64,000 nucleotides of DNA from Escherichia phage ESCO13 (NC_047770.1); one strand, 5' to 3'. Shown: positions 20,010-38,612, counted from the first letter of the stretch. Program-made: numbers and translations. The notes: generated by a model from the sequence alone, not told the origin.

Positions 20010-20027
20010 AAGGGGCCGAAGCCCCTT
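20010..20027 (-). terminator. intergenic hairpin AAGGGGCCGAAGCCCCTT (copy 1 of 3)
   Basis: GGGGC-UUCG-GCCCC on the minus transcript, followed by U-rich tract. Confidence 0.45.
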
Positions 20028-20034
20028 GAGTGGT

Positions 20035-20850
20035 TTATTTGTTTAAGTGGTCTTCGACCATTTTAATGAAACCTTCATTGCTGAAGGCTGTTGCAGCTTT
20101 TTCTCGGTAAACAAAAACTCCACGATCTTCATAGAGAAGTGTTTCTTCGTAATTAACTCCAGGGTTAACTACAACCATTTTTGTACCCATACTAAGTGCA
20201 GGAAATAATTCCCAATTAAAATTGATAACTTGGTTTGAACATCCTACTACTACAACCAAATCTTGCATGGTCAAAGTATCGAACAAGTGAGCCATATCTA
20301 CATACAAAGGTGCAGCCTCACCAAAAAATACAACATTAGGCTTCACCCAGTTATAATCATCTATGTTTATACTATTGTAACCAATATCTACCAGTGTTTT
20401 GTAATCTCCAGGATGCATACGGTAAACTACTTCAGGAAGATATCCGTGTACGTGAATAACAGAATCTCTGTCTACACCTGCTCGCTCTAGTAGATCATCA
20501 ACGTTTGTTGTCAAGTTTACTATTTGGTTAGGATATTCCTTAAACCACTTTGCTATTTGAATATGTGCAGCATTAGGTTGTACATCTTTAAGCTCAACAC
20601 GTCTTTTGTTATAAAATTCGTGTGTTTTGGCATACAAATCCATACCGTTCTCATCTACACCACCGACCACTGGAAGACCTGGAGATGTTCTAACACGATA
20701 ACCTGCTTGGAAAGCTCCAATATCGCAGACCTCTTCTAAATCATATTCTTCCCATAAAGCACGACCACTATCTGTGTCTGTTCTAAATGTTCGAATCCCA
20801 CTGTCTGCACTTAAACCTGCACCGCTTACAAAAATCACTCGTCTTGGCAT
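20035..20850 (-). CDS. Sir2-like (sirtuin-family) NAD-dependent protein
   Basis: VIFVSGAGLSADSGIRTFR (GAGxS..G..FR); TTNVDDL; HG; SD gaggagg. Confidence 0.7.
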   Translation of the reverse strand: MPRRVIFVSGAGLSADSGIRTFRTDTDSGRALWEEYDLEEVCDIGAFQAGYRVRTSPGLPVVGGVDENGMDLYAKTHEFYNKRRVELKDVQPNAAHIQIAKWFKEYPNQIVNLTTNVDDLLERAGVDRDSVIHVHGYLPEVVYRMHPGDYKTLVDIGYNSINIDDYNWVKPNVVFFGEAAPLYVDMAHLFDTLTMQDLVVVVGCSNQVINFNWELFPALSMGTKMVVVNPGVNYEETLLYEDRGVFVYREKAATAFSNEGFIKMVEDHLNK

Positions 20851-21320
20851 TCTTCCTCCTCAAATGGATCATAAGAATTGTACTCGTAAGTATCATCTTC
20901 TGAAAATTCTACTTCGAAATAAATATCAAACTCTGCAAACAGACGTAGGATGTTAGACATGCTGTAATAATTATCGTAGGCAGATTCAGCTTCATAGTAA
21001 ACATAAAGCAAATGGTTAGCCTTATCATCTTCCAAATATTTCCCGTCTGCATACGCATAGTCTGCATATGCTTTACCTGCATCTTCCACAAGAGAACGAT
21101 CAAGCAGAGTAGGAAATGGTTTCTCTTTTTCTTTTAGTTTGCTCACTAACCAATGTGCAATATCATTCCATTCTGCATCCATACCACTAAAGCAACTTGC
21201 TTCTTCTCCAAAAGAAGCTTCTCCTAAATCGCCACTAATACGAATAACATTAGATGAATTATAGCCACACGTTTCACAATCAGAGTAACTATTATGCACA
21301 TTGACATTTACTTGAAACAT
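20835..21320 (-). CDS. hypothetical acidic protein
   Basis: SD aggagg upstream. Confidence 0.45.
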   Translation of the reverse strand: MFQVNVNVHNSYSDCETCGYNSSNVIRISGDLGEASFGEEASCFSGMDAEWNDIAHWLVSKLKEKEKPFPTLLDRSLVEDAGKAYADYAYADGKYLEDDKANHLLYVYYEAESAYDNYYSMSNILRLFAEFDIYFEVEFSEDDTYEYNSYDPFEEEECQDE

Positions 21321-21378
21321 ATTCCCTCCTATAAAAGAAAAGCCCCCTGAAACAGGAGGCTTTGTTCAGATGCTGGCA

Positions 21379-22032
21379 CTATACCAGACTTTGTAGGTAT
21401 TTGTCAAGGGCTTCTTGATCGCCTTGACAAACATAGCAACGGAAGTCTTGAGCCGAAGGTTGTTTATTTTCATCCCAGTCCCAATAAACATTACCCTTAT
21501 AACGTGAACCAGGAAACTCAAAAGAGGCTGTATGTGTAATGTATCCTGGGCCACCAGTGAAATCACAGAATGAGAATTGGGGGTATGCCGCCTTTACTGC
21601 CTCAATAAACCAAGCTTTACGATCTAAAGCTTCATTGATGCTATACGCATGTCTCTCCATTTCTTCCCACGTTTTCCAGACACTTCTCTCATCAGGAGAA
21701 AAGACAAGCCATTCTGGAAGGTATAGAGTGTCATAGTAATCATCATATTCGATCTCGGAGGCGCACGAAGCTGACTCCTCCAGTTTTGAGTAATCAAAAG
21801 CAGAATATACCCACCAACCATCTTCCAGTAACGCTTTGATAGGGACGAAGCCTTTATCAGCATATTGATCGAATTGTTTGACACGGTGGCTTGTGCAGTC
21901 TTCAAACTCACATTCTAAACGATATGCACCTTTTCGACGAGCCTCAAGACCGTGTGTACTGAAAATAACAACACTTCCTTCACCATCATTACGATCTACT
22001 TGATAAGCAACCACTGGTTTTGAATTTGACAT
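21379..22032 (-). CDS. hypothetical protein
   Basis: SD aaggagaaa; ATGA overlap. Confidence 0.5.
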   Translation of the reverse strand: MSNSKPVVAYQVDRNDGEGSVVIFSTHGLEARRKGAYRLECEFEDCTSHRVKQFDQYADKGFVPIKALLEDGWWVYSAFDYSKLEESASCASEIEYDDYYDTLYLPEWLVFSPDERSVWKTWEEMERHAYSINEALDRKAWFIEAVKAAYPQFSFCDFTGGPGYITHTASFEFPGSRYKGNVYWDWDENKQPSAQDFRCYVCQGDQEALDKYLQSLV

Positions 22033-22715
22033 TATTTCTCCTTATCTAGAAGATTGTTAGACAAAAACACTGCACGAGCAAAACCACGTGCGGTTAGTGA
22101 TCTAAGTTGTTTTGTTTTTGCACTAGCTCCACCTAAGCTTTTCCAACCCCAGAAGCAGCCTATATGATCTACTGGTTTCTTCACTGGTTGAACAAAACCA
22201 TTGCCGTGCCAAATACAAGTTTTCTTTGTATACCCATCACGGGTAGGCATTTTAGGATGAAAGCTTCCTTCCTCTTCAAACAAATACCCACCATACTCAT
22301 AAGGATCAAAGTAAAAATCGGGTTTACGCCATAAGGTTGAAAGTTTACCTACTGGGTTCTCAATCATCCAAGGAACATTATATTTGTTACCCAAAGCTTC
22401 CACTACACGAATATTAGCTAAAGCTTCATCCAATTCCTCTGTGCTGCGTTCGTGTTTGCTACCACTACCTGCTAACATAGTGCAAGGTGGAAATCCAAAA
22501 ATAATATCGGGTTTAGGTATCCCATGATCTTCAGGGTTGAATGTAGAATCTATCCAGGCATTCACATAGGTTATGTTTGGGTGCTCCATCCTAACCTCGT
22601 ATTTACCGTGATCCCCTTCATCAGCGTTTACACAAAAACACTTGTGACCTGCTTCGGCATAACGTAACACCATGATCCCAGATCCGTCAAACATAGACAA
22701 AACTGTTTTACTCAT
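22032..22715 (-). CDS. DNA (cytosine-5)-methyltransferase-like protein
   Basis: Start moved to ATG 22715 after SD ggagggg; SMFDGSG (FxGxG), GFPPCT (PC), MIENPVG (ENV-like). Confidence 0.5.
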   Translation of the reverse strand: MSKTVLSMFDGSGIMVLRYAEAGHKCFCVNADEGDHGKYEVRMEHPNITYVNAWIDSTFNPEDHGIPKPDIIFGFPPCTMLAGSGSKHERSTEELDEALANIRVVEALGNKYNVPWMIENPVGKLSTLWRKPDFYFDPYEYGGYLFEEEGSFHPKMPTRDGYTKKTCIWHGNGFVQPVKKPVDHIGCFWGWKSLGGASAKTKQLRSLTARGFARAVFLSNNLLDKEK

Positions 22716-23103
22716 TACCCCTCCATTCAAGACAAGCCATAACTTTACGCCAATCACTTTCTGTAAGAAAAATCTCGTTTGCTTTCTTCCACAAATCTAA
22801 ATCGTGAAGGGTTGGAATACGATATGTTAGTTCACAGAATCTATGCTCTTCTTCTGTAATATAACCAAAATGCAGAGCCACATCGTGAAACCAACACCAA
22901 CCATGCATCTCTCGAACAACATGGTCATGTTGAGACATTATTTTATGCCGTAAACCTAACCAACAAGGAACAGATACTTTAGTAGTCTTTAATCTGTGAT
23001 CAACAGTATTAGAGTATTCAATAATAGCTGTCAGTTTCAATCGTGCTTTTTCTAAATCCTCATGCGTCACTTTGAAATAACTTTCTGAAAGATATCCACA
23101 CAT
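22708..23103 (-). CDS. hypothetical protein
   Basis: Start moved to ATG 23103 after SD gaaggagg. Confidence 0.45.
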   Translation of the reverse strand: MCGYLSESYFKVTHEDLEKARLKLTAIIEYSNTVDHRLKTTKVSVPCWLGLRHKIMSQHDHVVREMHGWCWFHDVALHFGYITEEEHRFCELTYRIPTLHDLDLWKKANEIFLTESDWRKVMACLEWRGNE

Positions 23104-23104
23104 A

Positions 23105-24046
23105 TTAATAACCTCCTTCAAAAGGCTTTACTACATGTTGATTAGCTTTAAAACGTTCAACATAGTCGTTTTCGCCCATGTTTTCATATAGCTTAATAAC
23201 AACATAAAAGTTTTCCCAAGCATATTCCCTAAACCAACCACTAGTGATGGATGTGCAGACTTTAGATAAAGCCATTATAAAACTTTGCTTAGGGGTTGGA
23301 CCTCCGATCTCTCCACCGAAAGGAATTTGTGAACGTTCCAAAGCCAAAACACACGCTTCTTCATAAACACCTAACAGGCGCACATGTTTTGGTTGAGCAA
23401 AAAACTTTTCTTTGCTGGTCATAACTTCACTTCCATCTTTCATATAAGATTTATATGCCGGAGCATCCATTACCGCGATTGCTTCATGGATAGAATCATG
23501 ATCATAAACATACGGAACCTCATCACCTTTAAAAAAGTCTTTACTTTTTACGTTTAAGTTCGGATGAGAGTAAGTGTATGTTTCTTTCTCACGCAACTCA
23601 TAAATACTCTTAAGATTTTCTGGGATCTTTGCGCCCAGTGATCGCATGAAATGAATATCTTTCATAGTTTTAAAGAAGTGAGGACTATCCTTTTTAAAAC
23701 GATGACTCATTTTAAGAAGGTAGAGCACATCTAAAGGAGCAACAACATGTCCAGCGTAAGTTCGACGAACATCATCAGAATCTTCACAATAACTAATCAA
23801 AGCTTCTGTGCTATCTCCTTGAGAAGCAATATCGTATTCCAAATGTGCACCAGCTATCATTTTGACATGGCCTTTGTTTCCTTTACGTTCTACAAGTTCA
23901 ACAAACTCCTCTTGAGAGAACATTTTTGATAATTCTTCCCACTCTTGTTCTGTACACAGGTAATCTAAATCTACACAAGGGCGATACAAGTCTTTTCCCA
24001 TGCCCATAGCATGAATTTGCAATGCACGGCTACCAATTAACACCAT
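23105..24046 (-). CDS. hypothetical protein, possible nucleotidyltransferase fold
   Basis: N-terminal LIGSRAL ... CVDLDY (GS...DxD pattern); SD agaggag. Confidence 0.4.
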   Translation of the reverse strand: MVLIGSRALQIHAMGMGKDLYRPCVDLDYLCTEQEWEELSKMFSQEEFVELVERKGNKGHVKMIAGAHLEYDIASQGDSTEALISYCEDSDDVRRTYAGHVVAPLDVLYLLKMSHRFKKDSPHFFKTMKDIHFMRSLGAKIPENLKSIYELREKETYTYSHPNLNVKSKDFFKGDEVPYVYDHDSIHEAIAVMDAPAYKSYMKDGSEVMTSKEKFFAQPKHVRLLGVYEEACVLALERSQIPFGGEIGGPTPKQSFIMALSKVCTSITSGWFREYAWENFYVVIKLYENMGENDYVERFKANQHVVKPFEGGY

Positions 24047-24100
24047 AATATTTCTCCTCTATTGGTTGATAGGTTAAGTTTATCAAGCTTCCAGATTCCT

Positions 24101-24127
24101 GTCAATAAAAAACCCGCCGAAGCGGGT
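24101..24127 (-). terminator. minus-strand intrinsic terminator
   Basis: acccgc-uucg-gcgggu on minus RNA, then U6. Confidence 0.5.
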
Positions 24128-24136
24128 TATTATTTA

Positions 24137-24409
24137 CTAACACATTGAGGAAGAAGAGATCCAAACACCTCTTGTGGTTAAACCATTTTCATCCAACTCT
24201 ACACCATAATCTTCACAAATAAAATCAATATAGTGATCTGCGGCTGGCGTTCCTGTAGGGTAATAAGTTTCTCCGTTACCGTAGTCACCTATCCAAGCTT
24301 GTTCCTGAAACTGTTCACAAAGTTCTTCAATTTCCTTACGAAACTTTCTTTGTGCTTGTTCCATCTCTTTAACTTTCTTTTTTATCAGCAGTTCGCCTTC
24401 AGACTCCAC
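24137..24409 (-). CDS. hypothetical acidic protein
   Basis: SD aaggagag upstream. Confidence 0.45.
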   Translation of the reverse strand: MESEGELLIKKKVKEMEQAQRKFRKEIEELCEQFQEQAWIGDYGNGETYYPTGTPAADHYIDFICEDYGVELDENGLTTRGVWISSSSMC

Positions 24410-24418
24410 AATCTCTCC

Positions 24419-24637
24419 TTAACAGCTACTACTGTGCCAAACGCCTTGAGAATTAACGACGAAACCCTCATCACCTTCACCATAACAAGAAGAGGATTGC
24501 CAATCTTCAAAACAGATTGCGTCATCTTCTAAACTAAGACCAAAACCAGCATCTTCAGCTTCTTTTGTAAGTTCGTCCACTAAAGCCATAATAGCTTGGG
24601 CTTTTTCAGTTAATTCTTCAACATTACGATAACTCAT
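24419..24637 (-). CDS. hypothetical protein
   Basis: Start moved to ATG 24637 after SD agaggag; TAATG overlap. Confidence 0.4.
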   Translation of the reverse strand: MSYRNVEELTEKAQAIMALVDELTKEAEDAGFGLSLEDDAICFEDWQSSSCYGEGDEGFVVNSQGVWHSSSC

Positions 24638-24906
24638 TAGTATTTCTCCTCTGGTTGGAAAACGGAACGACAGGCCCACATAGAAGCTTCTTTCAACTTA
24701 GTCTTTGCTATTGAAATTTGGTCAAGGCGGGTGGATATATTGGTAGACTCTTCCAAATCTTCACAATCATCCAATTCAGTCCACAATTCAGACATTAGAG
24801 CATCAAAGATTAAGCCTAATCGAACTTCAGCATCTTTAATAGCATTCACTTTACCAATTTTGTCATCGGTATGCGGTTTATAACCTTTGATATCTTCGAT
24901 TCCCAC
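24637..24906 (-). CDS. hypothetical protein (GTG start)
   Basis: Start moved to GTG 24906 after SD aggaggt. Confidence 0.4.
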   Translation of the reverse strand: MGIEDIKGYKPHTDDKIGKVNAIKDAEVRLGLIFDALMSELWTELDDCEDLEESTNISTRLDQISIAKTKLKEASMWACRSVFQPEEKY

Positions 24907-24917
24907 TTTACCTCCTA

Positions 24918-25115
24918 TTAACAACTTAAAGAAGATGGATGCCAATTTGTTCCAGTATTCTCATTTTCATCTTCTGGATCATAATAACCACCCATCCCAT
25001 ATTCAGGGGAGAAACTGAAACCTTCACCAGTCTCGTCTGCTAACTGCTCTGCTTCTGCTAAAGCCTCATAAGCTGCTTTTACGGCTTCTTCTACTGTTTT
25101 AAACTTGGTCGTCAT
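24918..25115 (-). CDS. hypothetical protein
   Basis: SD gagaggag upstream. Confidence 0.4.
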   Translation of the reverse strand: MTTKFKTVEEAVKAAYEALAEAEQLADETGEGFSFSPEYGMGGYYDPEDENENTGTNWHPSSLSC

Positions 25116-25389
25116 AAAATTTCTCCTCTCCTAAAGACATGTTGACATGAAATGCGCGGTATGTAAATTCGTTGTCCGTTGTGTTTGAATAAAACTCAAA
25201 TTGAACAACACCGTCTTGAGAAGACAAATACATGCCAATTTGAACTGTTCCTTCTGGTACCAGGTAAGCATACTCTGGACGTAGGGTTACATTGTAAAAA
25301 TAAAGTTCCCCAACACCCATTTCATCCCAAGCTTCCCAAGCGGTAACGAAGTTACTTTCAAAACTTGTTACTGATCCGAACTCTGCCAT
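25099..25389 (-). CDS. hypothetical protein
   Basis: SD gaggagg upstream. Confidence 0.45.
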   Translation of the reverse strand: MAEFGSVTSFESNFVTAWEAWDEMGVGELYFYNVTLRPEYAYLVPEGTVQIGMYLSSQDGVVQFEFYSNTTDNEFTYRAFHVNMSLGEEKFYDDQV

Positions 25390-25880
25390 AAAACCTCCTC
25401 AATCTTGTAGTTTGACTCCATCTCCAACACATTTCCACGAACGTCTCTCCGAAGAAAGGCATAAGCTTTATTAGGTATTGTAGACTCATATTTAACCATA
25501 TCTGGCACAGCAAAAGATACTACTACTCCTGCTGGGCTTCTGTCAAGAGCCTTATTAATATTTCTAAGGATATCATTAGCCAAGATTTCTGCCAATTCTC
25601 CAAGAACAGTTTCGGTTATATCTTTATATCCCATTAAGTATTTGTTGATATCTTTCATCTCTGTATTGTTCAGAGTATAATCCAAAGGATAGAAATTCAA
25701 AGCGGAGTCACTTTTATGTGTCCACATGAAATGCACCCGATCCGAGCAGAATCGTAACCCTCTTTGAAGAATATCTTCTACAACAGGCAGAATTTCTTTT
25801 GTCACATCATTAACCATGTTGTAATCTAAGATTTCTGCCAAGTTTGTTCTTTGTTCACCACGTTTACGTTTAGGAATCAC
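25368..25880 (-). CDS. hypothetical protein
   Basis: ORF with weak SD. Confidence 0.45.
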   Translation of the reverse strand: MIPKRKRGEQRTNLAEILDYNMVNDVTKEILPVVEDILQRGLRFCSDRVHFMWTHKSDSALNFYPLDYTLNNTEMKDINKYLMGYKDITETVLGELAEILANDILRNINKALDRSPAGVVVSFAVPDMVKYESTIPNKAYAFLRRDVRGNVLEMESNYKIEEVLWQSSDQ

Positions 25881-26451
25881 TTGTTATTGCCCTCATTACC
25901 AAAGGTCGTAGAAAATCGTAAATCTCTTGTTTTGTTTTCCCACGAATGTTTAAACAAGGAACATTATTGGCTTTAGCTATCTTCCAAGCCGTAGCTGTTC
26001 CACCTTTTGCATCTCCATGTTTATCAGTATTAGCACAAGCCAACAAGAAACATGATGGAGCAGGATTCTCCAAATCTCTACCTAACACTTGATGCACATT
26101 ACGTTGGTGCAATTTTCTAGCACCCTGCTTAAGCTTTTCATAGGCTGGGTGAACATCTTTGATCCATTGCACAGAGATAGCATAGTTCATTGTATCTGGT
26201 TTTGCAAGAACAATAACATCTCCTGGAATCTGATTACCTTTGAAATTTTCCCAAGGAACATAAATCTCCTTGTTAGTAGGATTTTCAGACTCTTGGACAC
26301 CTGTTTCAAAAGCAGAATCACTACCCTCTGCCTTCCCAGACCTTAATTTAAACCCAAGGTTTGAAAGCCATTTCCCTATGCCTACCATCAAAGCCCACTC
26401 TTCTTCGGATATGTCTCTACTTCCAACTCCCGTATAGAACAGTTCTGCCAT
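25870..26451 (-). CDS. hypothetical protein, possible DprA/SLOG-like nucleotide-binding fold
   Basis: Start moved to ATG 26451 after SD gaggtga; GVGSRD ... SGKAEGSDSAF. Confidence 0.35.
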   Translation of the reverse strand: MAELFYTGVGSRDISEEEWALMVGIGKWLSNLGFKLRSGKAEGSDSAFETGVQESENPTNKEIYVPWENFKGNQIPGDVIVLAKPDTMNYAISVQWIKDVHPAYEKLKQGARKLHQRNVHQVLGRDLENPAPSCFLLACANTDKHGDAKGGTATAWKIAKANNVPCLNIRGKTKQEIYDFLRPLVMRAITSDS

Positions 26452-26458
26452 AATCACC

Positions 26459-26767
26459 TCAACAAGTAATTTCAAAAGGTGTATACGGTTCCGTATTTCT
26501 CATGATCCAAGGACTGCTAGGATTGCTCGGATCATAAGGACCAAAAGGTTTTATGGTCGGTTGTGTTTCTTTCTTCTGAATCTCTTCAAAAATACGACGA
26601 AGTTCAGAATATTCTTGATCCACCATAAGATTCGGTGCATCTGATTCTACAGCTTGCAGGTTATCTTCCTTAAGAACAATCTCACGAACAAGATTAACAT
26701 CTTCTGTTTCTAAGATAACTTCTTTACGGATATTACCTACACTTTGAATAATTGTAATCTTATACAT
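26459..26767 (-). CDS. hypothetical protein
   Basis: SD gaggagg upstream. Confidence 0.45.
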   Translation of the reverse strand: MYKITIIQSVGNIRKEVILETEDVNLVREIVLKEDNLQAVESDAPNLMVDQEYSELRRIFEEIQKKETQPTIKPFGPYDPSNPSSPWIMRNTEPYTPFEITC

Positions 26768-27510
26768 TAATCCTCCTCAAGAGTTGAATAAAATTGAAGA
26801 CCACCGTCCATATCGAAATAAGCAAATGTTAAGTTATTATTGAACACAGATCCAGTATCCATATAAACACGATTCGCATTGATAATAGGTGTTTTTACAT
26901 AAGAGTGTCCATGAAACACATAATCCACACCCATCACAACAGGAAGTTTCATTCCCTCTTTAGCACAGTCTACCATATCTCTGTCCCACATAAGTGCTTC
27001 AGCAAAACGGTTTTCCTGTGTTTTTGTCATCTTCGAAATGTATTCTGGAATATCTGTTACAGGGAGATATTCCAAAGAAGATGGATACCCACCATGAATA
27101 AACGCAAGTTTCATGCCTCTGTAGTTAACAATGAGAACAACAGGTAAATCTTCTGTCATCATTGCTAAGGCTGTAGCTCCTTCTTCACCACATTCTTCAA
27201 AGACCGTATATCCTCCATTTTGATACCAACACTCGTAGTAGCTACGATCTCCTTCCAGCATACCTTTAATCATCATGTCTTCATGATTGCCACGAATAGC
27301 GTAGCGATTGTGTTTACGAGTAAATTCTAAAACACAACGAAAGTTTTGCTTTCCACGGTCAGTAAGATCTCCTAGAGATACAACCACATCTGTATCTCGG
27401 ATACCTAACTTTGCCTTTCCTTTTTCATACAAATTATAACAACCGTGTAGATCTCCAATTATAAAAAGATCTTGATCGCTTTTAACAGTAATTTCTCTGT
27501 GTATGATCAC
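26767..27510 (-). CDS. Ser/Thr protein phosphatase (PPP-type metallophosphoesterase)
   Basis: GDLHGCY; GDLTDRG; GNHE; SD gaggagg. Confidence 0.7.
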   Translation of the reverse strand: MIIHREITVKSDQDLFIIGDLHGCYNLYEKGKAKLGIRDTDVVVSLGDLTDRGKQNFRCVLEFTRKHNRYAIRGNHEDMMIKGMLEGDRSYYECWYQNGGYTVFEECGEEGATALAMMTEDLPVVLIVNYRGMKLAFIHGGYPSSLEYLPVTDIPEYISKMTKTQENRFAEALMWDRDMVDCAKEGMKLPVVMGVDYVFHGHSYVKTPIINANRVYMDTGSVFNNNLTFAYFDMDGGLQFYSTLEED

Positions 27511-27836
27511 TTATCCTCCTCAAAATCTAAGAAAATAAAAATATTCACCTTTCCTTCAATCTCTTGTTCTAAAACAAGATCGGCAAATTCTGCATAAGCT
27601 TTCTCTTCAACTTTTTCAATATGTTCTGCGGCATCTTTAAAAGGTGTATCCCCATCCACCTTTACTAATAAGAAAAGAGATCGCATTTCGACGCTTTTAC
27701 TGTTACGAGGAAGGAAATCTACAGCTTCAACAATTCTCCAACCCAAATAGCCAGGGGTTTTATGAATCTCCCCTAAATACTTTTCTAAGATTTTACGACC
27801 CTCGTCGATAAGGGCTTGTTCTGTAGTAATTTCCAT
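27507..27836 (-). CDS. hypothetical protein
   Basis: SD gaggagg upstream. Confidence 0.45.
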   Translation of the reverse strand: MEITTEQALIDEGRKILEKYLGEIHKTPGYLGWRIVEAVDFLPRNSKSVEMRSLFLLVKVDGDTPFKDAAEHIEKVEEKAYAEFADLVLEQEIEGKVNIFIFLDFEEDK

Positions 27837-27846
27837 TCCTTCCTCC

Positions 27847-28628: not shown

Positions 28629-28673
28629 AATCCCTCCTTAAAATACTCCCTCCGAAAAGGGAGTATAAGTATA

Positions 28674-30065: not shown

Positions 30066-30093
30066 ATGTTTAAGAAATGCCCCCGAAGGGGCA
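30066..30093 (-). terminator. minus-strand hairpin with U-rich tail
   Basis: ugcccc-uucg-ggggca on minus RNA, then uuucuu. Confidence 0.4.
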
Positions 30094-30098: not shown

Positions 30099-30791
30099 TT
30101 AAATAGCGGTTCCTTCGAAATCCGCCACATTTACGAGATTAATATTTTCAGATTTAGAAGTCAAGTTGTTTTCTGCAACAGATTTTTCTTCAGTATCCGC
30201 CTCGTTACCTGCCACGTTACGAGGTTCTTCTTCACCGTAGGGATTACCGAATTTCAAAAGATTGATCAATTCTTCTTTGGAGAAGTTTTCTAAATCATCA
30301 TCTGTTAATTCAATAATCTCGTCTTGTTCTTCAATAAATGTTTCACCACCAGAAAAAGCATCTCGCTTTTTAGCTACTTCCATAGCCTGTTCTGGTGTTG
30401 CCCCTGCATCAAGAGCAGCTAAAGCAAAGTCTGACCCGCTTCCTACCGCATAATATTCTTCATCAATCGGATATGCACGTGTTGGGTTATTACCTTCGTG
30501 CAGGAAAATACGTCCGTCTGGATGAACAACAAGTGCAATAAACTCTTCATCTTCTTTATCTGGATCAGAGTGAATCATCAAACCAGGGACAGCATCACGT
30601 GCTGCTTCGCACTGTAGATTTTGTTCAAACCATTGAAAGAAAGAAAGCACGGAGGTCAGACGACCAGCACCACCTACAAGGTAATCTCCAATTTTTCGGA
30701 CCTTTTTGAAATTAATAGAATCTACACGTCCACCAAAAGTTACCTTACCGTCACTCAAAATCTTATTTTTGGTTGCAATAATTGTCGTCAC
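30099..30791 (-). CDS. HslV (ClpQ)/proteasome beta-subunit-like Ntn peptidase with acidic C-terminal extension
   Basis: MTTIIATK (Thr2 nucleophile); KKVRK; GGAG; GSGSDFALAA; resembles E. coli HslV (from memory); SD gaggagg. Confidence 0.65.
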   Translation of the reverse strand: MTTIIATKNKILSDGKVTFGGRVDSINFKKVRKIGDYLVGGAGRLTSVLSFFQWFEQNLQCEAARDAVPGLMIHSDPDKEDEEFIALVVHPDGRIFLHEGNNPTRAYPIDEEYYAVGSGSDFALAALDAGATPEQAMEVAKKRDAFSGGETFIEEQDEIIELTDDDLENFSKEELINLLKFGNPYGEEEPRNVAGNEADTEEKSVAENNLTSKSENINLVNVADFEGTAI

Positions 30792-31294
30792 TATTCTTCC
30801 TCCTCTGTTAATGTTTTAAGAACCGCTTTCCCGCCATTCACATATTTGCAGATGTATTCTATCGCACGTAGTGTCTCTTTGTCAACAAAAATTTGATCAG
30901 ACGTTGCGAGCGGGTTATTAAGAAGATCACTACAATCACGAACAAGCAGTGCTTTCTTATTAAACAAATTACTTAAGAACAGTAACTTCGCCTCTTCTTC
31001 TGTTATGTGCAGAAGGCTGGGATCGGAGCCAGCTATTCCTATTATACAATCAAACAAGCTTTCTTTACTATCAGAAAGTTCTTGAAAATGGTTTAAAAGC
31101 CAATCTTCTCCTAGACACCAACATTTAAACATTTCCAGTTTATCTCGGAGGGTCATATTCTCTAAAGTAAGAGCAATCTCTTTTTCAATATGGTTTACAC
31201 AAATTTGACGAAATTCGTTAGGTTTTACGAGTCCCGTTTGATAGCACTCATCTATACCGCTTCTTCCGATAGCTATTGTTGCTACACCCATCAA
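30791..31294 (-). CDS. hypothetical protein
   Basis: SD aaggagg upstream. Confidence 0.45.
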   Translation of the reverse strand: MMGVATIAIGRSGIDECYQTGLVKPNEFRQICVNHIEKEIALTLENMTLRDKLEMFKCWCLGEDWLLNHFQELSDSKESLFDCIIGIAGSDPSLLHITEEEAKLLFLSNLFNKKALLVRDCSDLLNNPLATSDQIFVDKETLRAIEYICKYVNGGKAVLKTLTEEEE

Positions 31295-31326
31295 TCCTCC
31301 TTATAAATGGCTTCCCTGCCACATTA

Positions 31327-32085
31327 TTAAATAAACACTTCAGTAATCAGTTTAGACAAACGTCCACGTTTATTATCGTCCGTTGTCAGTTCAACGTATC
31401 CAATAAAATCTACAATTGGCTCACGAACACCTTCTTCATTTTCTGGATATAAAAGTTCCAAAATTTGATGCAGACCATTGCTACGTTTTTTAATTGCATA
31501 TGTCTGGCGAACATCGCCTAATACAATAACATGCGTATTAATACCTGCACGTTCAATAAGAAGTTTAAGTGTTTCTGTTGACATAAGTTGTGCTTCGTCA
31601 ATAATGACGATTGTATTATCCAGGGTAGCCCCCAACAAATAGTTAGGAATATTCAATTCGATCTTACCTGATCCAATATCGTTTTCCAATTTGTTGGCGG
31701 TCATGAATTGCTGGAAAATACGTTTTGTAGATTCATAGTGTGCTGCTAGTTTATCTGTTTTATCCCCAGACAAGAAACCAATCTGGTCATCTCCGACTTC
31801 AGTAGGGTTCTTGATAAAAAGTAGTTTACGGAAGTCTCCTGAACGAAGCATCTGCAAAGCTTTCCATAAAGCAACAGAGGTTTTACCAGTCCCTGCCGGA
31901 GCATTTACAACAGTCAGATCATTCCAGATCATGCTTTGAACAATCTTATTTTGGTCCCCTTCAGGCATAAATTCATCTAAACGGTAATCGTCATTACCTA
32001 CCGCTTTTGCTGCATAACGGCTTTCAATCTTTGCTGAATTAGCCAGTTTCTGCCGTTGTGTTTTAGCTGCGGTTTTATTTCCCAT
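31327..32085 (-). CDS. phoH: PhoH-like ATPase
   Basis: Walker A NAPAGTGKTSVAL; Walker B-like IVIIDEAQ; start moved to ATG 32085 after SD aaggag, which places the GGGGCCGAAGCCCC hairpin in the intergenic gap. Confidence 0.75.
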   Translation of the reverse strand: MGNKTAAKTQRQKLANSAKIESRYAAKAVGNDDYRLDEFMPEGDQNKIVQSMIWNDLTVVNAPAGTGKTSVALWKALQMLRSGDFRKLLFIKNPTEVGDDQIGFLSGDKTDKLAAHYESTKRIFQQFMTANKLENDIGSGKIELNIPNYLLGATLDNTIVIIDEAQLMSTETLKLLIERAGINTHVIVLGDVRQTYAIKKRSNGLHQILELLYPENEEGVREPIVDFIGYVELTTDDNKRGRLSKLITEVFI

Positions 32086-32102
32086 AGTAGCACTCCTTTT
32101 AG

Positions 32103-32120
32103 AAGGGGCCGAAGCCCCTT
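32103..32120 (-). promoter_or_regulatory. intergenic hairpin AAGGGGCCGAAGCCCCTT (copy 2 of 3)
   Basis: Identical 18-mer between lysozyme stop and phoH SD. Confidence 0.45.
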
Positions 32121-32122
32121 TA

Positions 32123-32623
32123 TTAGTTGTAAGCATCTAAAGTTCCAGAAGTCAGAACTTTAATTACTCGTTCAGCACGGTTTGGCGTCTGGCTATACCA
32201 TCGGCTTTTACGCATGTTTTTACCTGCTTGAGTATAATATGCATTGCTGATTAAAGTCAAGCTATTTTGAAACCCTTCAGCACCTTTTAACCCCAACTGG
32301 AAAACCATGTTGATTATTCCCAATTTACGAGTATCACTCACCTTATCATAGATTGGTGATAAGATAGCACTGTTTTTTATGTCTCTCTTCACTTTTGCAA
32401 CATCGTCAGCAAAGATTTGACGGGCTTCTTTTTCTGTGATAACTCCATTAGTCTTACGACCAAGAAGATTATCTAAGATTTGAATAGCCTTTGCTTTATC
32501 TTTTATTTTAGTCAGAAGGTGTCCTATGCCGACTGTCCAATAACCAAGATGATCTTGGTAAACAGTAAGCTTCAGTCCTTCATCGACTCGTAGCATATCA
32601 AACTCATCTACTACTTTAGCCAT
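32123..32623 (-). CDS. T4-type lysozyme (endolysin)
   Basis: EGLKLTVYQDHLGYWTVGIGHLL resembles the T4 lysozyme catalytic region; SD aggaag. Confidence 0.75.
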   Translation of the reverse strand: MAKVVDEFDMLRVDEGLKLTVYQDHLGYWTVGIGHLLTKIKDKAKAIQILDNLLGRKTNGVITEKEARQIFADDVAKVKRDIKNSAILSPIYDKVSDTRKLGIINMVFQLGLKGAEGFQNSLTLISNAYYTQAGKNMRKSRWYSQTPNRAERVIKVLTSGTLDAYN

Positions 32624-32630
32624 TTACTTC

Positions 32631-32780
32631 CTATTCGTCGTCTCCTACTCCGTGATCCAACTCATTAAACAACAGATGTTCTGGAGAAGTTTCACGTTTT
32701 GGTTTCGTTTTCTTTATGTTGGACTTCAGCTCATTTGCCAAAGCACGAGAAAAGATCTTACGTTTCTGTTTACTTTTCAT
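32631..32780 (-). CDS. small basic protein (49 aa, not in track)
   Basis: ATG after SD ggagtaa; fills lysozyme-glutaredoxin gap. Confidence 0.3.
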   Translation of the reverse strand: MKSKQKRKIFSRALANELKSNIKKTKPKRETSPEHLLFNELDHGVGDDE

Positions 32781-32785
32781 AATTG

Positions 32786-33046
32786 TTACTCCGCAATTTG
32801 AGCCATGAGATCACGCAGTTCGGTAAAACCGCCTACGTATGTTACCTCCCCGTTCACTTCAGACAGAATTTGTGGAAATGTGCGTGGAGGAACTCCGGTA
32901 AGATCAACAACTGTTTTAGTCATTGATTCTAAATCATAGTCTTGGTCAAGACTTAAATATTCAAACTGTTTATTGCGCATAGTCAATAGTTGTTTTGACA
33001 TTTCACAAAATTGACAGTTAGGTTTACCAAAAATTACAAATTCCAT
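32786..33046 (-). CDS. glutaredoxin/NrdH-like redoxin
   Basis: CQFC active site near N-terminus; about 86 aa; SD aaggagagg. Confidence 0.6.
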   Translation of the reverse strand: MEFVIFGKPNCQFCEMSKQLLTMRNKQFEYLSLDQDYDLESMTKTVVDLTGVPPRTFPQILSEVNGEVTYVGGFTELRDLMAQIAE

Positions 33047-33888
33047 TACCTCTCCTTATTAAGTAATACTGCTAAAGACTGTTCAATACCTTTATTTAAA
33101 TCTGATTTTGTAAGATAGTGACTGGTTACTAGTTGTGACTTCACCGGACGTGCTGCTGGAGCATTATAGGTTGAAGCTGATACCGCCGATATCTTAACAG
33201 GTTCTGGCATCTGTGTCAAGATCTTTTCCGCAAACTCCGCCCAAGAAATAAGATGGCTTCCTGCAAAATGGTAAGTCTTAACAGACCTTGACCAACCTGT
33301 TTTTAATACTTCAAAAATAGCTTCTGCTAAATCTGGAGCATATGTTGGACAAGAGAACTGATCAGCAACAATAATAAAATCACGTTGTCCATCATTATAG
33401 CGAGACAACATAGTTTTTAGAAAGTTATTTCCAAATTCGCTATATACCGAGGCTGTTCGAATAATATATGCATTTGGGTTAACTCCTCGCACCATTTTTT
33501 CACCAAGTTCTTTCGTATACCCATAATTGTTTATTGGGTTAGGTGTAGTGTCTTCAAAAATAGGATGAGAATAATTAAAAATATAGTCTGTGGAAATATG
33601 CACAAAATCAATTTTAAGTTTGCTGCACACTGCCGCAATATTTGCAGGGCCATAAGCATTAACAGCCAAAGCAGTAGCAAAATCTTGTTCGGCTTTATCT
33701 ACAGCCGTATAAGCGGCGCAATTAATAACACCATCTACATAATCTTCAACAATAGCGTTTCGCACAGCTTCAAAATTTGTAATATCTACACGTTCTTTAG
33801 GATAAATTAAAGATACATTTGCAGGGGCAACTTTACGTAAAGCTTGTCCCAGTTGTCCATTACCACCCAATACCAGATATGTTAGCAT
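33046..33888 (-). CDS. rmlD: dTDP-4-dehydrorhamnose reductase
   Basis: [17 protein letters not shown] Rossmann N-terminus; last gene of rml order. Confidence 0.65.
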   Translation of the reverse strand: MLTYLVLGGNGQLGQALRKVAPANVSLIYPKERVDITNFEAVRNAIVEDYVDGVINCAAYTAVDKAEQDFATALAVNAYGPANIAAVCSKLKIDFVHISTDYIFNYSHPIFEDTTPNPINNYGYTKELGEKMVRGVNPNAYIIRTASVYSEFGNNFLKTMLSRYNDGQRDFIIVADQFSCPTYAPDLAEAIFEVLKTGWSRSVKTYHFAGSHLISWAEFAEKILTQMPEPVKISAVSASTYNAPAARPVKSQLVTSHYLTKSDLNKGIEQSLAVLLNKER

Positions 33889-34448
33889 ACACCCTCGCTA
33901 CGTAACTGTTGAAAAGATTTAGCCATTGCATCTTTTGTTGATAGGATAGGTTTAAAACCTTCATCAAAAATCATATCGAAGCCCCAATCGATCCCTATAT
34001 CAGGATCATCCCAACGTAAACTTTCTTCACTAGAAGGGTCGTATGGAGTTGTGCATTTGTATTCAAAGATAGCATCCATACTCAAAACTATAAAACCATG
34101 TGCCAAACCAGGTGGAAGCCAAAACTGCGTATGGTGTCGTGCACGAAGAACAACACCGTCCCAAGCACCGTAAGTAGGACTATCTTTACGTAAGTCTACA
34201 GCGAAATCCAATACTTCACCACTTACACAACGAACAAGCTTACCTTGCGGATTATTTGTTTGAAAGTGCATTCCTCGCAAAACACCGAAGTTTGATTTAG
34301 ACATGTTATCTTGAACGAAAGTTTGTCTACCAATGATATCTTCGTATTTTTGTTCATTATATGTTTCTAAAAAGAAACCACGGTCGTCTTTATAAACGTC
34401 TGGTTTGATAATTACCGCACCTTCAATTTTTGTTTTTTCTACTTTCAT
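33882..34448 (-). CDS. rmlC: dTDP-4-dehydrorhamnose 3,5-epimerase
   Basis: Start moved to ATG 34448 (ATGA overlap with rmlA stop); cupin-like RmlC sequence. Confidence 0.65.
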
Positions 34449-35323
34449 TTTCCCTCCGCTAATTTGAGTAGGTATTGCCCGTACTCTGTTTTCTTCAGTG
34501 AGTTTCCATGGTAGACCAAAGTCTCTAAAGAAATCCACCCTTTTTTGAAAGCAATTTCTTCCAGGCACGCAATCTTCAATCCTTGACAGTTCTCAATAGT
34601 CTGCACGAATTGACCAGCTTCCATCAGACTGGCGTGTGTTCCTGTGTCAAGCCAAGTAAATCCTCGTCCGAGAACTTCCACTTGTAACTTCCTGTCTTCG
34701 AGGTAGCTGCGATTGATATCAGTGATCTCCAGTTCTCCACGCGCGGAAGGGGTTACTTCTAATGCACGTTGAATAACAGAGTTATCATAGAAATACAAAC
34801 CTGTGACAGCATAATCTGATTTAGGATTTTCAGGTTTCTCTTCAATAGAAATAACTTGACGATTACTCCCAAATTCAACCACACCGAATCGTTCAGGATC
34901 TTTCACCAAACACCCGAAGATACAAGCTCCGCCCCAAACATCTACCATCTCACTAGCGTCAATCAGTAGTTTACCAAAGCTTTGTCCGAAGAATAGGTTG
35001 TCACCTAAAATAAGAGCAACAGAGTCTTCTCCGATAAAATCTTTACCGATGATGAAAGCGTCCGCAAGACCTCGTGGCTTGGATTGGATTGCGTAAGTGA
35101 GTTTTATCCCAAACATAGACCCATCTCCAAGAAGATACTCAAAGTCTTCCTGATCGCCTGGTGTGGTGATGATTAAGATATCCTTAATGTCAGCCAACAT
35201 CAATACCGATAAAGGGTAGTAGATCATGGGTTTGTCATACACAGGGAGCAATTGCTTGCTCACACTGCGTGTTACCGGATGAAGGCGGGTTCCACTTCCT
35301 CCCGCCAAAATAATACCTTTCAT
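34445..35323 (-). CDS. rmlA: glucose-1-phosphate thymidylyltransferase
   Basis: [20 protein letters not shown] aaggagg. Confidence 0.8.
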
Positions 35324-35331
35324 AACCCTCC

Positions 35332-36324
35332 TTAAATCTTCTCACTCCACCATTGAGGGTTGTTTAAGTACCATTCAATCGTTGAGTAGAGATCTTGTTC
35401 AAATGTAGAGTTTGCACTCCAACCCAGTTCAGACTCTATTTTAGAAGGATTGATTTCATAACGCAAGTCATGTCCTTTACGATCTTCAACAAAAGTTATC
35501 AAGTTGGAAGAAGGGTAGGTTCCTGCTTCTGGATGTACAGCATCCATGTAGTCACAAACCATATAGATGATCTCCATATTGGTTTTGGGATTACGTGTTC
35601 CAACATTATACGTTTGACCTGGTTCTCCACCTGTTGCCACTTGAAGAATAGCTCGCGCATGATCCTCAACAAAAAGCCAGTCTCGCACCTGATCGCCTTT
35701 ACCATACACCGGAATCTCTTTATTCGTCAAGATACTTGTGATGATTTTTGGGATCAGCTTTTCTGGATGTTGATAAGGTCCAAAGTTATTGGAGCAGTTG
35801 GTTATCACAACAGGTAAACCGTAGGTACGGTACCAAGCTTTCACAAGATGGTCAGATGCTGCCTTAGACGCACTGTACGGGCTTGAAGGGGCATAAGCTG
35901 TCTCTTCGGTAAAGGGAACGCCAGAGTCTGCCATATCGCCGTACACTTCGTCTGTGGAGACATGTACGAACATCTTAAGTTTATTTTTTGGGAGGAGCCT
36001 TGCAGCTTCCAATAAATTGTATGTACCAATAATATTGGAGTCGATGAAAACTCGTGGATTCTTGATAGAATTATCCACATGACTCTCTGCCGCTAAGTGA
36101 ATGATGAAATCGGGATTGCACTCTACTACTAAACTTTTGACCTGGGTTTCGTTTGCCAAATCTGTTATGCTCAGTTTAACGTGAGTGATATCGCCTACAT
36201 TCTCAATATCTGCTGCATAGCCCATCTTATCAACGACAAAAACTTCGTTATTGGGATCTTGACAAAGAGAGCGCACCACGGCACTCCCAATAAAACCAAG
36301 ACCACCTGTTACCAGATAGCGCAT
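35332..36324 (-). CDS. rmlB: dTDP-glucose 4,6-dehydratase
   Basis: [22 protein letters not shown] (YxxxK); SD aaggagaa. Confidence 0.8.
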
Positions 36325-36333
36325 CAGTTCTCC

Positions 36334-36660
36334 TTACCAGACATGTTGAGAAATAATAGTTTCCGTTTTAATGTTATATTTTTCAAGTAGCTTTGCATAG
36401 GCTTCTTTTGCATTCTCATTCAATTGCTCAAGATCTACAGCTATGCTTCCTTCTCCGCCTTCTAAATCAAGGCCATATATGCAATAAGACTCATCCGCAT
36501 CGTAGAAAGGAGAGATGCGGCTTAAGTCAAGACCTTCTTGTAAGAACCAGTTAAAATCTCCGTCAAATTCTTCTTCAATTCTAGGATCTTCTCCTACAGC
36601 CTCTTCCCACTTATTTAAAGGTGCACCCTGTAACATACGCCATTCGATATCAATACCCAT
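36334..36660 (-). CDS. hypothetical acidic protein
   Basis: SD ggaggag upstream. Confidence 0.45.
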   Translation of the reverse strand: MGIDIEWRMLQGAPLNKWEEAVGEDPRIEEEFDGDFNWFLQEGLDLSRISPFYDADESYCIYGLDLEGGEGSIAVDLEQLNENAKEAYAKLLEKYNIKTETIISQHVW

Positions 36661-36814
36661 TTTTCATCTCCTCCTCTTCTTGAGCAGCTTTAATAATTGC
36701 TTCATAAATATCGTAAGCAATGCCTCCACAACATCTAGCTTCGAAAGCTATTGCTTCTGCAATGTGATCTGTTAATTCTCGTGGAATGCGAACATACTCT
36801 TTTTCACTCTCCAT
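36650..36814 (-). CDS. small hypothetical protein (54 aa, not in track)
   Basis: ATG after SD ggaggtag. Confidence 0.3.
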   Translation of the reverse strand: MESEKEYVRIPRELTDHIAEAIAFEARCCGGIAYDIYEAIIKAAQEEEEMKNGY

Positions 36815-36956
36815 CTTCTACCTCCAACCCTTCTTTTTCAAAGACTACTACTCGTCCCTCACCATGACAATTCAGGCAAGGAAATGTTACCATAATTTCC
36901 ACTTCCATCTGTCCCGTCCCACCGCACACAGGACAAAAAATAAGTTTTTCAGCCAC
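36804..36956 (-). CDS. small zinc-ribbon protein (50 aa, GTG start, not in track)
   Basis: GTG after SD aaggagg; CPVC...CLNC. Confidence 0.3.
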   Translation of the reverse strand: MAEKLIFCPVCGGTGQMEVEIMVTFPCLNCHGEGRVVVFEKEGLEVEDGE

Positions 36957-37165
36957 TATTCCTCCTTAATTATTTCAAATTTGGCAACACCATTTACAAT
37001 AATATGACCACAAGACATAACTCCTAGCCAAGGATCGCCGTTTTTCTTCAGGCGTTTACCGAATACATCACAAAAACCATTCTTCATTTCAGAGGCTTCA
37101 TAAGAAGCCCCTTTATCAAAAACGTCTTTGAATGTGTCGATTATACCAACACATTTCAAAATCAT
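36956..37165 (-). CDS. hypothetical protein
   Basis: SD gaggag; ATGA overlap with nrdB stop. Confidence 0.4.
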   Translation of the reverse strand: MILKCVGIIDTFKDVFDKGASYEASEMKNGFCDVFGKRLKKNGDPWLGVMSCGHIIVNGVAKFEIIKEE

Positions 37166-38250
37166 TCGAAGTCAAGCTCCTCATCATCAGAGAGATCTTT
37201 GTTAGCTGAATTCAATTTGTAGTTAGTTAACTGAATCTCTTGGGCTGCTGACTGAATCAAATCAGGATTCAACCATTTTTCCATCCAAGCTAAAGGGCTA
37301 TGTTTAGGTGCTTTAAACTTGGCTTTCATTTTCAATCGACGATAAATAGGAGCAGCATTGAAATAAACCCACTGTTTAGACAATTCGGCGTTAAGACCTA
37401 CAATAAAACGACCTTCACTAAACAGGTAGTCACACCACTGTTCCTCTTGTTCAACAACAGTGTCGAGGATCAAAGTCAACTCTTCAATATTGTCTTCGTA
37501 AATTTTACGCCAAATTGGGTCATGCATCAATGCATCAATTACAGCATAATCCATCTTAACATGCAAGATTTCATCTAGCATAATTTTCTGGATCAGTTTA
37601 CAAGCCCCAACAAACAGTTGTTGTTCTGCCATAGCAAAAGTAGCAGAGAAGGAAGATATAAACTGAATACCTTCTAATCCAATCAGGGCTACCATCCCTT
37701 TAAGAATCAGCAGTCGAAGTTCATCGTTAGCTTCAATCAATCCTAGAGCATACTTATGACCAGCTTCTTCCAACTGACCCATGATATCAGCAATGATACC
37801 CATACGATTGAAAATTTTATCATTAATCATAATCTGATTGATGACTTCAATTGGATCTGGAGTACATTGACGGATTATTTCAGAATACGTTAACGCATGG
37901 AGAACTTCCATTTCACTCTGCTTCATCATCATAGCACAGGCTTCATTGTTACTCAAAAATGGAGAGAACAAAGTGATGATTGATTTTGCAAGAGAATCAT
38001 TTTCCCATTGGAACGATAAGTTTTTAATCATAACATCATAGTTGTTTTTAGAACAAGCTACGAAATCTTTACGTGTCTGATCCAGATTGACTTCATTCTC
38101 ATCCCAATCTTGTGCTTTTTGAAGTTTGTAGAGTTTGTGCATTTCTGGATAAGTTACGTTAACAGAATCAAAGATCCCTAATTGCTCCCCCAAAAATACT
38201 GGATATTTTCCTGTTTTGTAAACTTCATTGTGTAAATTAATTGCTGCCAT
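37162..38250 (-). CDS. nrdB: ribonucleotide reductase class Ia small subunit
   Basis: Ferritin-like motifs EVLHALTY and GLEGIQFISSF; acidic C-terminal tail DDEELDFE; SD gtggagga. Confidence 0.8.
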   Translation of the reverse strand: MAAINLHNEVYKTGKYPVFLGEQLGIFDSVNVTYPEMHKLYKLQKAQDWDENEVNLDQTRKDFVACSKNNYDVMIKNLSFQWENDSLAKSIITLFSPFLSNNEACAMMMKQSEMEVLHALTYSEIIRQCTPDPIEVINQIMINDKIFNRMGIIADIMGQLEEAGHKYALGLIEANDELRLLILKGMVALIGLEGIQFISSFSATFAMAEQQLFVGACKLIQKIMLDEILHVKMDYAVIDALMHDPIWRKIYEDNIEELTLILDTVVEQEEQWCDYLFSEGRFIVGLNAELSKQWVYFNAAPIYRRLKMKAKFKAPKHSPLAWMEKWLNPDLIQSAAQEIQLTNYKLNSANKDLSDDEELDFE

Positions 38251-38575
38251 TTAAGTCCTCCACTATATAACACATGCTTTTAAGTTCTGCAATATCTTCT
38301 TCGCTTGCTCCGTCTATCTTATAAACACCTTCTAGACCATCCCATACACTTTTAGTTAAGATTATTGTTATGTTATTTTCTGATCTTGCTCTACCTAATG
38401 CAAAAGCCGTTGCACTAGGATCATCAGAAGCCCATATTTGTATATCCCTAAGTTGGTAGGCAGCAATATAATTGCAACACCAATGTAAAGTAAAATCTTT
38501 GGAATCTACCAAGATAACGGTTCCATCACGTTTATGGATAGGTGATGCGCCTGGTAACACTATTAATGTTTCCAT
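38237..38575 (-). CDS. hypothetical protein
   Basis: SD aaggaga upstream. Confidence 0.45.
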   Translation of the reverse strand: METLIVLPGASPIHKRDGTVILVDSKDFTLHWCCNYIAAYQLRDIQIWASDDPSATAFALGRARSENNITIILTKSVWDGLEGVYKIDGASEEDIAELKSMCYIVEDLNGSN

Positions 38576-38594
38576 ATTTTCTCCTTAGAAAATA

Positions 38595-38612
38595 AAGGGG
38601 CCGAAGCCCCTT
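38595..38612 (-). terminator. intergenic hairpin AAGGGGCCGAAGCCCCTT (copy 3 of 3)
   Basis: Directly after nrdA stop; U-rich tail on minus transcript. Confidence 0.5.

Follow-up and report, generated by a model that had tools for sequence, protein, structure and literature searches.

Hairpins capped by a UUCG tetraloop, located at seven intergenic sites in a 64,000-nucleotide (nt) stretch of the Escherichia phage ESCO13 genome (NC_047770.1; the whole stretch is referred to as the window), are best explained as two classes of RNA element. Copies followed by a U-run are probably Rho-independent terminators or attenuators, and the U-poor copies at 32103 and 28643 are probably intercistronic stability or insulator hairpins. 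A probability of about 0.7 was assigned to this explanation. The window derives from a Phapecoctavirus (phAPEC8-like, Stephanstirmvirinae) and, over 10 kb, shares 99.3% identity with Escherichia phage ESCO25. Sites are named by their first plus-strand coordinate.

The 18-mer AAGGGGCCGAAGCCCCTT was matched exactly three times in the window (20010-20027, 32103-32120 and 38595-38612, plus-strand coordinates), and all three matches were within the long minus-strand gene block delineated by GC skew and the open reading frame (ORF) map. This agreed with a preliminary description of the window, which had placed the 18-mer in three gaps of the minus block at these positions. No fourth site was present in the window, even with up to 3 mismatches, and 100 dinucleotide shuffles gave a chance expectation of 0.01 against the 3 observed. 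In transcript form the 18-mer is AAGGGGCUUCGGCCCCUU, a 7-bp stem with a c(UUCG)g tetraloop, comprising the tetraloop-closing C-G pair, four further G-C pairs, and A/U pairs from the flanking runs.

A census of perfect-stem tetraloop hairpins returned 10 in the window, 6 of which had a UUCG loop. Besides the 18-mer copies, these were 19372-19389(+), 24111-24128(-) and 30078-30093(-). The preliminary description had listed GC stems reading as UUCG on the minus transcript at 24112 and 30078, at most 1 base away, and a plus-strand UUCG terminator at 19373, 1 base from the hairpin found. The 19372(+) and 24111(-) transcripts contain an identical 18-mer, AACCCGCUUCGGCGGGUU. A seventh UUCG loop, closed by a U·G pair, was found at 28643-28666(-) by a broader energy-based census.

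Across 300 dinucleotide shuffles the mean number of c(UUCG)g hairpins was 0.01 and the maximum 1, compared with the 6 observed, and a chance origin was ruled out on this basis. Read on its block's coding strand, the loop was always UUCG and never CGAA (6/6 or 7/7 in the window; binomial probability 0.004-0.016, with the 8/8 of ESCO25 included). The latter count came from the whole ESCO25 genome, reassembled from four sequence pieces, in which all eight perfect c(UUCG)g hairpins were co-oriented with transcription and two near-variants of the 18-mer (AAGGGGCUUCUGCCCCUU and AAGGGCUUCGGCCCUU) were additionally present. Every hairpin was kept in the minimum free energy or the centroid fold when given approximately 25 nt of context on each side. 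All seven sites have a stem of 6-10 bp with at least 5 G-C pairs, a tetraloop, and a hairpin free energy of -11 to -13 kcal/mol; a UNCG loop on a C-G closing pair was present at six, the U·G-closed 28643 failing on this point. An Rfam scan of the window at gathering thresholds returned tRNAs only, with no match for the hairpins. The hairpin feature, as observed in sequence, fold, orientation and position, is real and non-random, and the hairpins are very probably functional.

Terminator character was scored with d, our own re-implementation of the d'Aubenton-Carafa discriminant. Values above 0 were obtained at five of the seven UUCG sites (19372, 20010, 24111, 30078 and 38595) and values below 0 at 32103 and 28643. 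A separate terminator scan called 20010, 24111, 30078 and 38595 on the minus strand. The U-run directly 3' of the stem was clear at 19372, 24111 and 38595 and moderate at 20010 and 30078. The preliminary description had distinguished hairpins with U-tracts, which it saw as terminator-like, from hairpins directly before a Shine-Dalgarno sequence (SD), which it took for possible stability or processing elements, and the in silico evidence divided in the same way. In the near-identical phage Schickermooser (MK373788.1), a 'putative transcriptional terminator, determined by ARNOLD' is recorded at the equivalents of 19372, 19692, 20010, 21339, 24111, 28643 and 38595. Five of the seven UUCG sites are covered by these annotations; the equivalents of 30078 and 32103 are unannotated, though the hairpins are present.

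At the minus-strand sites checked, the hairpin starts 2-8 nt past the upstream stop codon, on the coding strand, and at 20010, 28643, 30078, 32103 and 38595 the next SD is only 3-12 nt 3' of the hairpin. The 24111 hairpin (24111-24128(-), AACCCGCUUCGGCGGGUU followed by UUUUUUAUUGACA; d = +21.0, z = -5.3; ARNold terminator in Schickermooser) is flanked by two hypothetical genes. Its fold in context is lengthened by pairing between A-run and U-run, and its U-run merges into a promoter-like TTGACA-17-TAAACT with an upstream TG (24105-24077), forming a terminator-promoter unit. A second such unit, with a different hairpin at 44720, lies at 44680-44738(-). It shares TTTTTTATTGACA with the 24077-24128(-) unit, the U-run in both passing directly into the -35 hexamer TTGACA, and the -10-like hexamer 17 nt 3' of TTGACA is TATACT in place of TAAACT. 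The 24077-24128 unit is conserved in other genera.

The plus-strand hairpin at 19372-19389 (AACCCGCUUCGGCGGGUU, tail UUUUUUCAUAUC; d = +17.7, z = -3.0) is near the end of the plus block, between genes 19046-19327 and 19419-19649 and 44 nt past the stop codon. It corresponds to an ARNold terminator in Schickermooser and to a 'terminator' feature in ASO2A, and the hairpin is conserved in Wec186 and PHB05. The 29-nt module of hairpin plus U-run is bracketed by a perfect 10-nt direct repeat, GTAGCAATAG (19362-19371 and 19401-19410(+)), the second copy of which overlaps the SD of the next gene; the pair resembles a target-site duplication. Around the equivalent hairpin in PHB05, a different 7-nt exact repeat was present (9/10 when extended).

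Copy 3 of AAGGGGCUUCGGCCCCUU (38595-38612(-), tail UAUUUUCUAAGGAG; d = +13.9; ARNold terminator, -13.90, in Schickermooser) begins 4 nt past the nrdA stop codon and is followed by a 112-aa ORF and then nrdB. Copy 1 (20010-20027(-), tail UCUUAUUAGGAG; d = +7.4; ARNold terminator in Schickermooser) begins 7 nt past the stop codon of a Sir2-like gene, and its last paired base is 7 nt 5' of the SD of a small ORF, the final gene in the minus block. The hairpin UGCCCCUUCGGGGGCA with tail UUUCUUAAACAUAGGAG (30078-30093(-); d = +3.2; no annotation at this position in Schickermooser) lies between an HslV-like gene and a hypothetical gene. Copy 2 (32103-32120(-), tail CUAAAAGGAG; d = -15.4; no terminator annotation in Schickermooser) is 2 nt past the lysozyme stop codon and 4-5 nt 5' of the phoH SD, and has no U-tract (CUAAAAGG). 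The U·G-closed hairpin AUACUCCCU-UUCG-GAGGGAGUAU with tail UUUAAGGAGG (28643-28666(-); d = -13.0; ARNold terminator in Schickermooser) has a poor U-tract, UUUAAGG, leading directly into an SD. A Pfam scan of small ORFs beside the hairpins (the 112-aa ORF after nrdA, a 219-aa ORF inserted there in relatives, and the ORFs at 19719 and 24137) returned nothing significant.

Equivalent junctions were compared in Justusliebigvirus (PHB05, JohannJBalmer, PaulScherrer and ESCO9), the Wec179/Wec186 clade, Klebsiella phage KP13-26 and nine IMG/VR relatives located via PhoH. Hairpins persist at equivalent gene junctions in the Justusliebigvirus, Klebsiella-phage and Wec clades, at approximately 70-78% nucleotide identity. 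The 24111 hairpin and its downstream TTGACA are invariant in all lineages (PHB05, Wec186, KP13-26 and the IMG/VR relatives). A hairpin is present at the nrdA 3' junction of all relatives examined. The phAPEC8 and Wec clades have GGGGC-UUCG-GCCCC there, the Klebsiella clade has GGGGC-GAAA-GCCCC and Justusliebigvirus has GGGGG-CUUUGU-CCCCC. Where relatives have the extra 219-aa ORF after nrdA, the hairpin sits 3' of the insert. The AAGGGGC/GCCCCUU stem at the lysozyme-phoH junction (32103) does not vary; it carries a UUCG, GCAA, GAAA or GUAA loop, and all lineages compared have a U-poor tail there. The loop at the Sir2 3' junction (20010) is UUCG, replaced by UACG in Wec186 and by GAAA in PHB05 and KP13-26. 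At the 30078 junction the lineages have different stems in one and the same place (UGCCCC, AUGCCC, AUGCCUC, AACCCCC), with the equivalents AUGCCC-UCCG-GGGCAU in KP13-26, AACCCCC-UCAC-GGGGGUU in PHB05 and AUGCCUC-UUAG-GAGGCAU in L140. A hairpin related to 28643 was found in Wec186 and L139, and PHB05 and KP13-26 have none, a promoter-like site being present instead. As a separate observation, the nrdA-nrdB spacer (38237-38620(-)) is an indel hot spot, with no ORF in Schickermooser, the 112-aa ORF in the window, Wec and PHB05, the 219-aa ORF in ESCO9 and both ORFs in MirsaeidiM_Esher1; the hairpin is always directly 5' of the next SD.

Conservation and loop substitution were both observed in this comparison. 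The loops exchanged at equivalent sites are UUCG, UACG, UCCG, GAAA, GCAA and GUAA, and those on the fixed GGGGC/GCCCC stem are UUCG, UACG, GAAA, GCAA and GUAA only. The 19 instances of GGGGC-NNNN-GCCCC, which are not all phylogenetically independent, comprised 8 UNCG and 11 GNRA loops, two classes that account for 12 of the 256 tetraloops that can be formed. Because the stem is fixed while the loop swaps among extra-stable classes, the pattern argues for selection on the stability of the hairpin and not on UUCG-specific recognition.

The UNCG/GNRA class switches at all three GGGGC junctions across the subfamily. Between the window (UUCG) and the congener Wec186 (GCAA), the lysozyme-phoH loop differs at 4/4 positions, the 10 stem bases are identical, and 14 differences are found in the surrounding 80 nt (Fisher p = 0.001). 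This suggests that the loop was replaced from a template, namely another copy with identical arms, and not by stepwise point mutation. A tentative extension is that the three AAGGGGC-loop-GCCCCUU copies are kept alike by short-patch gene conversion, a concerted evolution of terminator hairpins, which we consider possible at best. If true, gene conversion would account for both the wholesale loop swaps and the present three-fold identity. When 32103-32120(-) is set against L136 11938-11951, two Phapecoctavirus lineages whose loops (UUCG and GCAA) differ at all four positions, almost the whole spacer is identical besides the stem, a pattern that suggests a loop exchanged in a single event, possibly by gene conversion with another copy as donor.

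The exact 18-mer was found in at least 120 IMG/VR contigs. Of the 120 listed, 119 were unrelated to the window and 1 was related, and the G+C content of the matches listed ranged from 21% to 65%. At least 5 T within the next 8 nt followed 87 of 123 occurrences in the UUCG orientation compared with 40 of 123 in the opposite orientation, again among the matches listed. A lineage-specific signal was ruled out by this distribution. Since at least 119 unrelated contigs carry the 18-mer and T-runs prefer its UUCG orientation, it is a generic terminator hairpin that has been reached convergently.

The proposed mechanism is as follows. A short G+C stem (5 G-C pairs plus A-U pairs from the flanking A-run and U-run) with a c(UUCG)g cap would fold in the nascent mRNA just past the stop codon, and hairpin and U-run together would bring about Rho-independent termination by the host RNA polymerase. 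Termination is predicted to be clear at 19372, 24111 and 38595 and weaker at 20010 and 30078. Four of the hairpins have the SD of the next gene beginning a mere 4-12 nt beyond them. There is no room for a promoter between the hairpin and an adjacent SD, so the downstream gene would have to be reached by pass-through transcripts and termination there would be partial. These four would accordingly be attenuators, stepping expression down along the co-directional block. The 24111 terminator, joined as it is to a new promoter, would mark a true boundary between transcription units. In a secondary role, a hairpin remaining at the 3' end would shield the upstream message from 3' exonucleases. Little termination is probable at the U-poor hairpins, 32103 and 28643, for which a role in intercistronic stability or as insulators of folding is more likely. 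What we infer from the features observed is termination, read-through and RNA protection.

Several points weigh against this explanation. The d-score uses modern energy parameters and not the original calibration, and 32103 and 28643 fail the U-tract criterion. A fairly good terminator separates nrdA from nrdB, a pair needing balanced expression, so that read-through or an internal promoter must be assumed. A conserved promoter-like TTGACA-17-GATAGT (19324-19352(+)) lies approximately 20 nt 5' of the 19372 hairpin, which is odd for a pure terminator. A literature search returned no Phapecoctavirus transcriptome or transcript 3'-end data.

A clearly less probable explanation is that the hairpins act mainly after transcription, as barriers to 3'-to-5' exonucleases following endonucleolytic cleavage or as 5' protectors of the downstream cistron, and terminate transcription rarely if at all. 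A single polycistronic mRNA would then consist of segments that differ in half-life. The lack of a usable U-tract at 32103 and 28643 fits this, as does the fact that 32103 stays U-poor throughout the subfamily while the hairpin is conserved. The minus-strand copies other than 24111 sit 3-12 nt 5' of an SD, so their downstream genes need pass-through transcripts, and a 5' untranslated region (UTR) hairpin at 41562-41583, behind a near-consensus promoter, indicates that the phage also uses non-terminator hairpins. In T4, CUUCGG hairpins are reported as mRNA-stabilizing (PMC8948821). However, U-runs are present at most copies, T-runs preferentially follow the 18-mer in unrelated phages (among the matches listed), and most copies are called by terminator predictors; the two roles are also not mutually exclusive. 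Cleavage by RNase III, which the preliminary description had raised, is unlikely. Such a site needs approximately 20 bp, or two helical turns, and was rejected for perfect stems of only 6-10 bp, the extension at 24111 consisting of A-U pairs broken by unpaired bases.

It is improbable that the hairpins serve chiefly in translation, either as fast-folding insulators 5' of the SD that block pairing of the ribosome-binding site with the upstream coding sequence, or by making read-through dependent on the ribosome completing the upstream gene, the hairpin being 2-8 nt past its stop codon. The tight layout of stop codon, 2-8 nt, hairpin, 3-12 nt and SD does recur at 20010, 28643, 30078, 32103 and 38595, and the UUCG hairpin was first proposed as a folding nucleation site (PMC4371310). 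Compact phage genomes, however, give this spacing as a matter of course, and neither 19372 nor 24111 adjoins an SD. Least probable by far is that the identical 18-mers are mobile or recombinogenic copies, whether a palindrome resembling repetitive extragenic palindromic (REP) sequences or miniature inverted-repeat transposable elements (MITEs), or a gene-shuffling cassette of the T4 promoter-early stem-loop (PeSL) type. The identity of the three copies, the perfect 10-nt GTAGCAATAG repeat around the 19372 module, ORF gain and loss at the nrdA-nrdB junction among relatives and the 4/4 loop swap on unchanged arms would all suit such an origin. Yet the three copies share nothing outside the 18 nt, and all three sites are orthologous, with the same stem in other genera, and so are old and not recent insertions. 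In a scan of 111 hairpins from the window and relatives, flanking direct repeats of at least 7 nt were found at 5.4%, compared with 6.5% of 13,500 random positions. The GTAGCAATAG repeat is a lone outlier (control frequency approximately 0.0017 per site), and none of the relatives was found to have an empty 19372 site. The occurrence of the 18-mer in 119 unrelated phage contigs among those listed also points to convergence. A mobile REP- or MITE-like palindrome was rejected for its lack of shared flanks, the orthology of the sites and the absence of flanking-repeat enrichment. A PeSL-type cassette was rejected in turn, as only the 18-mer is common to the three copies and 24111 and 44720 share only TTTTTTATTGACA.

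Hairpins that stabilize mRNA between cistrons are known, for example the REP sequence in the malE-malF spacer, and a stabilizing hairpin is found in the 5' leader of T4 gene 32. The hairpins at 32103 and 28643 are likewise stable, U-run-free, conserved in position and between cistrons (PMC8948821, in part). They are much smaller than REP sequences, with no protein partner or mobility evident, and their stabilizing role is putative. PeSL cassettes of T4-type phages were reportedly described by Arbiol and colleagues in 2010. The terminator-plus-promoter units, with TTTTTTATTGACA common to 24111 and 44720, resemble them, but no extended repeated cassette surrounds ORFs here and the likeness is limited to the hairpin, or to the T-run and -35 hexamer.

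UUCG-capped intergenic phage hairpins have been textbook material since 1988. According to PMC8948821 (citing Tuerk et al. 1988), phage intergenic regions often contain CUUCGG hairpins, notably in T4, where these halt reverse transcriptase and stabilize mRNA; PMC4371310 describes UUCG as the most stable known loop, with no protein bound. In an engineered riboswitch, changing a terminator loop to UUCG gave better termination (PMC5621056). The intercistronic C(UUCG)G hairpins of T4 (Tuerk et al. 1988, PNAS 85:1364, via PMC8948821 and PMC4371310) have the same loop, closing pair and mRNA orientation, and are likewise intergenic in a large lytic coliphage and tied to terminators and mRNA stability. 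Unlike T4, which belongs to Tevenvirinae, the phage here is of the Stephanstirmvirinae, three copies share the full 18-nt hairpin, and the loop alternates with GNRA on a fixed stem in relatives. What the hairpins have in common with the Rho-independent terminators of E. coli and its phages (ARNold, d'Aubenton-Carafa) is a G+C-rich stem under a tetraloop, with a U-run 3' of it at most copies, placed just past stop codons. An upstream A-run, as in intrinsic terminators, gives some copies a bidirectional look. Unlike standard intrinsic terminators, 32103 and 28643 are without a U-run, and four copies, with the next SD immediately behind them, cannot be full stops. A literature search returned no specific description of these hairpins; most of the elements are already annotated as terminators in public records, and the kind of element is ordinary and long known.

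Two further terminators of the window have other loops. A bidirectional terminator at 19692-19715, with a 10-bp stem (AAAGGCACCC-ACUU/AAGU-GGGUGCCUUU) and T-runs on both sides (d = +24.7 and +22.7; annotated in Schickermooser), separates the convergent plus and minus blocks and belongs to the same terminator set, its loop not being UUCG. The second, AAAGCCUCCUG-UUU-CAGGGGGCUUU with tail UCUUUUAU, is at 21339-21363(-) (d = +18.9; annotated in Schickermooser). At 41562-41625(-), the gene downstream of thymidylate synthase has a near-consensus promoter, TTGACT-16-TATAAT, and, approximately 12 nt past the likely start, a 5' UTR hairpin (41562-41583), UGGGAGGA-GGUGAG-UCCUCCCA, of -14 kcal/mol. A hairpin is retained at this place in relatives on other stems (GGAGAGC, GGGAGAG, GGGGGA), and it is probably a 5' stabilizing or regulatory stem-loop. 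An intergenic hairpin at 48021-48039(-), GCCGCCC-UUUAU-GGGCGGU (-14 kcal/mol), is followed by AAUGUGAG with no U-run and is a candidate non-terminator intercistronic hairpin. Outside the window, ESCO25 (OM386656.1, 123456-130939) contains seven plus-strand copies of a hairpin family, GCGGCAAUGGUGCCGC, between small early ORFs; these have an AUGG loop and a 6-7 bp G+C stem with no U-run after it, and are not terminator-like. An eleventh tRNA-like sequence in the tRNA cluster, at 58235-58319(+), was detected by the Rfam tRNA model (39 bits, E = 1e-4) and is absent from the ARAGORN output. The ORF-poor stretch 1-1466 is the counterpart of a 1.4-kb gap without annotation in ESCO25 (133714-135175), and another at approximately 56100-57500 lies 5' of the tRNA cluster, where the minus and plus blocks diverge.

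The comparative pattern, a fixed G+C stem under a UNCG or GNRA loop, introduces no new principle and provides a clean natural example of selection on hairpin stability. For annotation, the hairpins show where, within the early and middle gene blocks of phAPEC8-like phages, which are therapeutic candidates, transcription units are likely to be bounded or attenuated; operon mapping or the planning of engineered insertions could make use of them.

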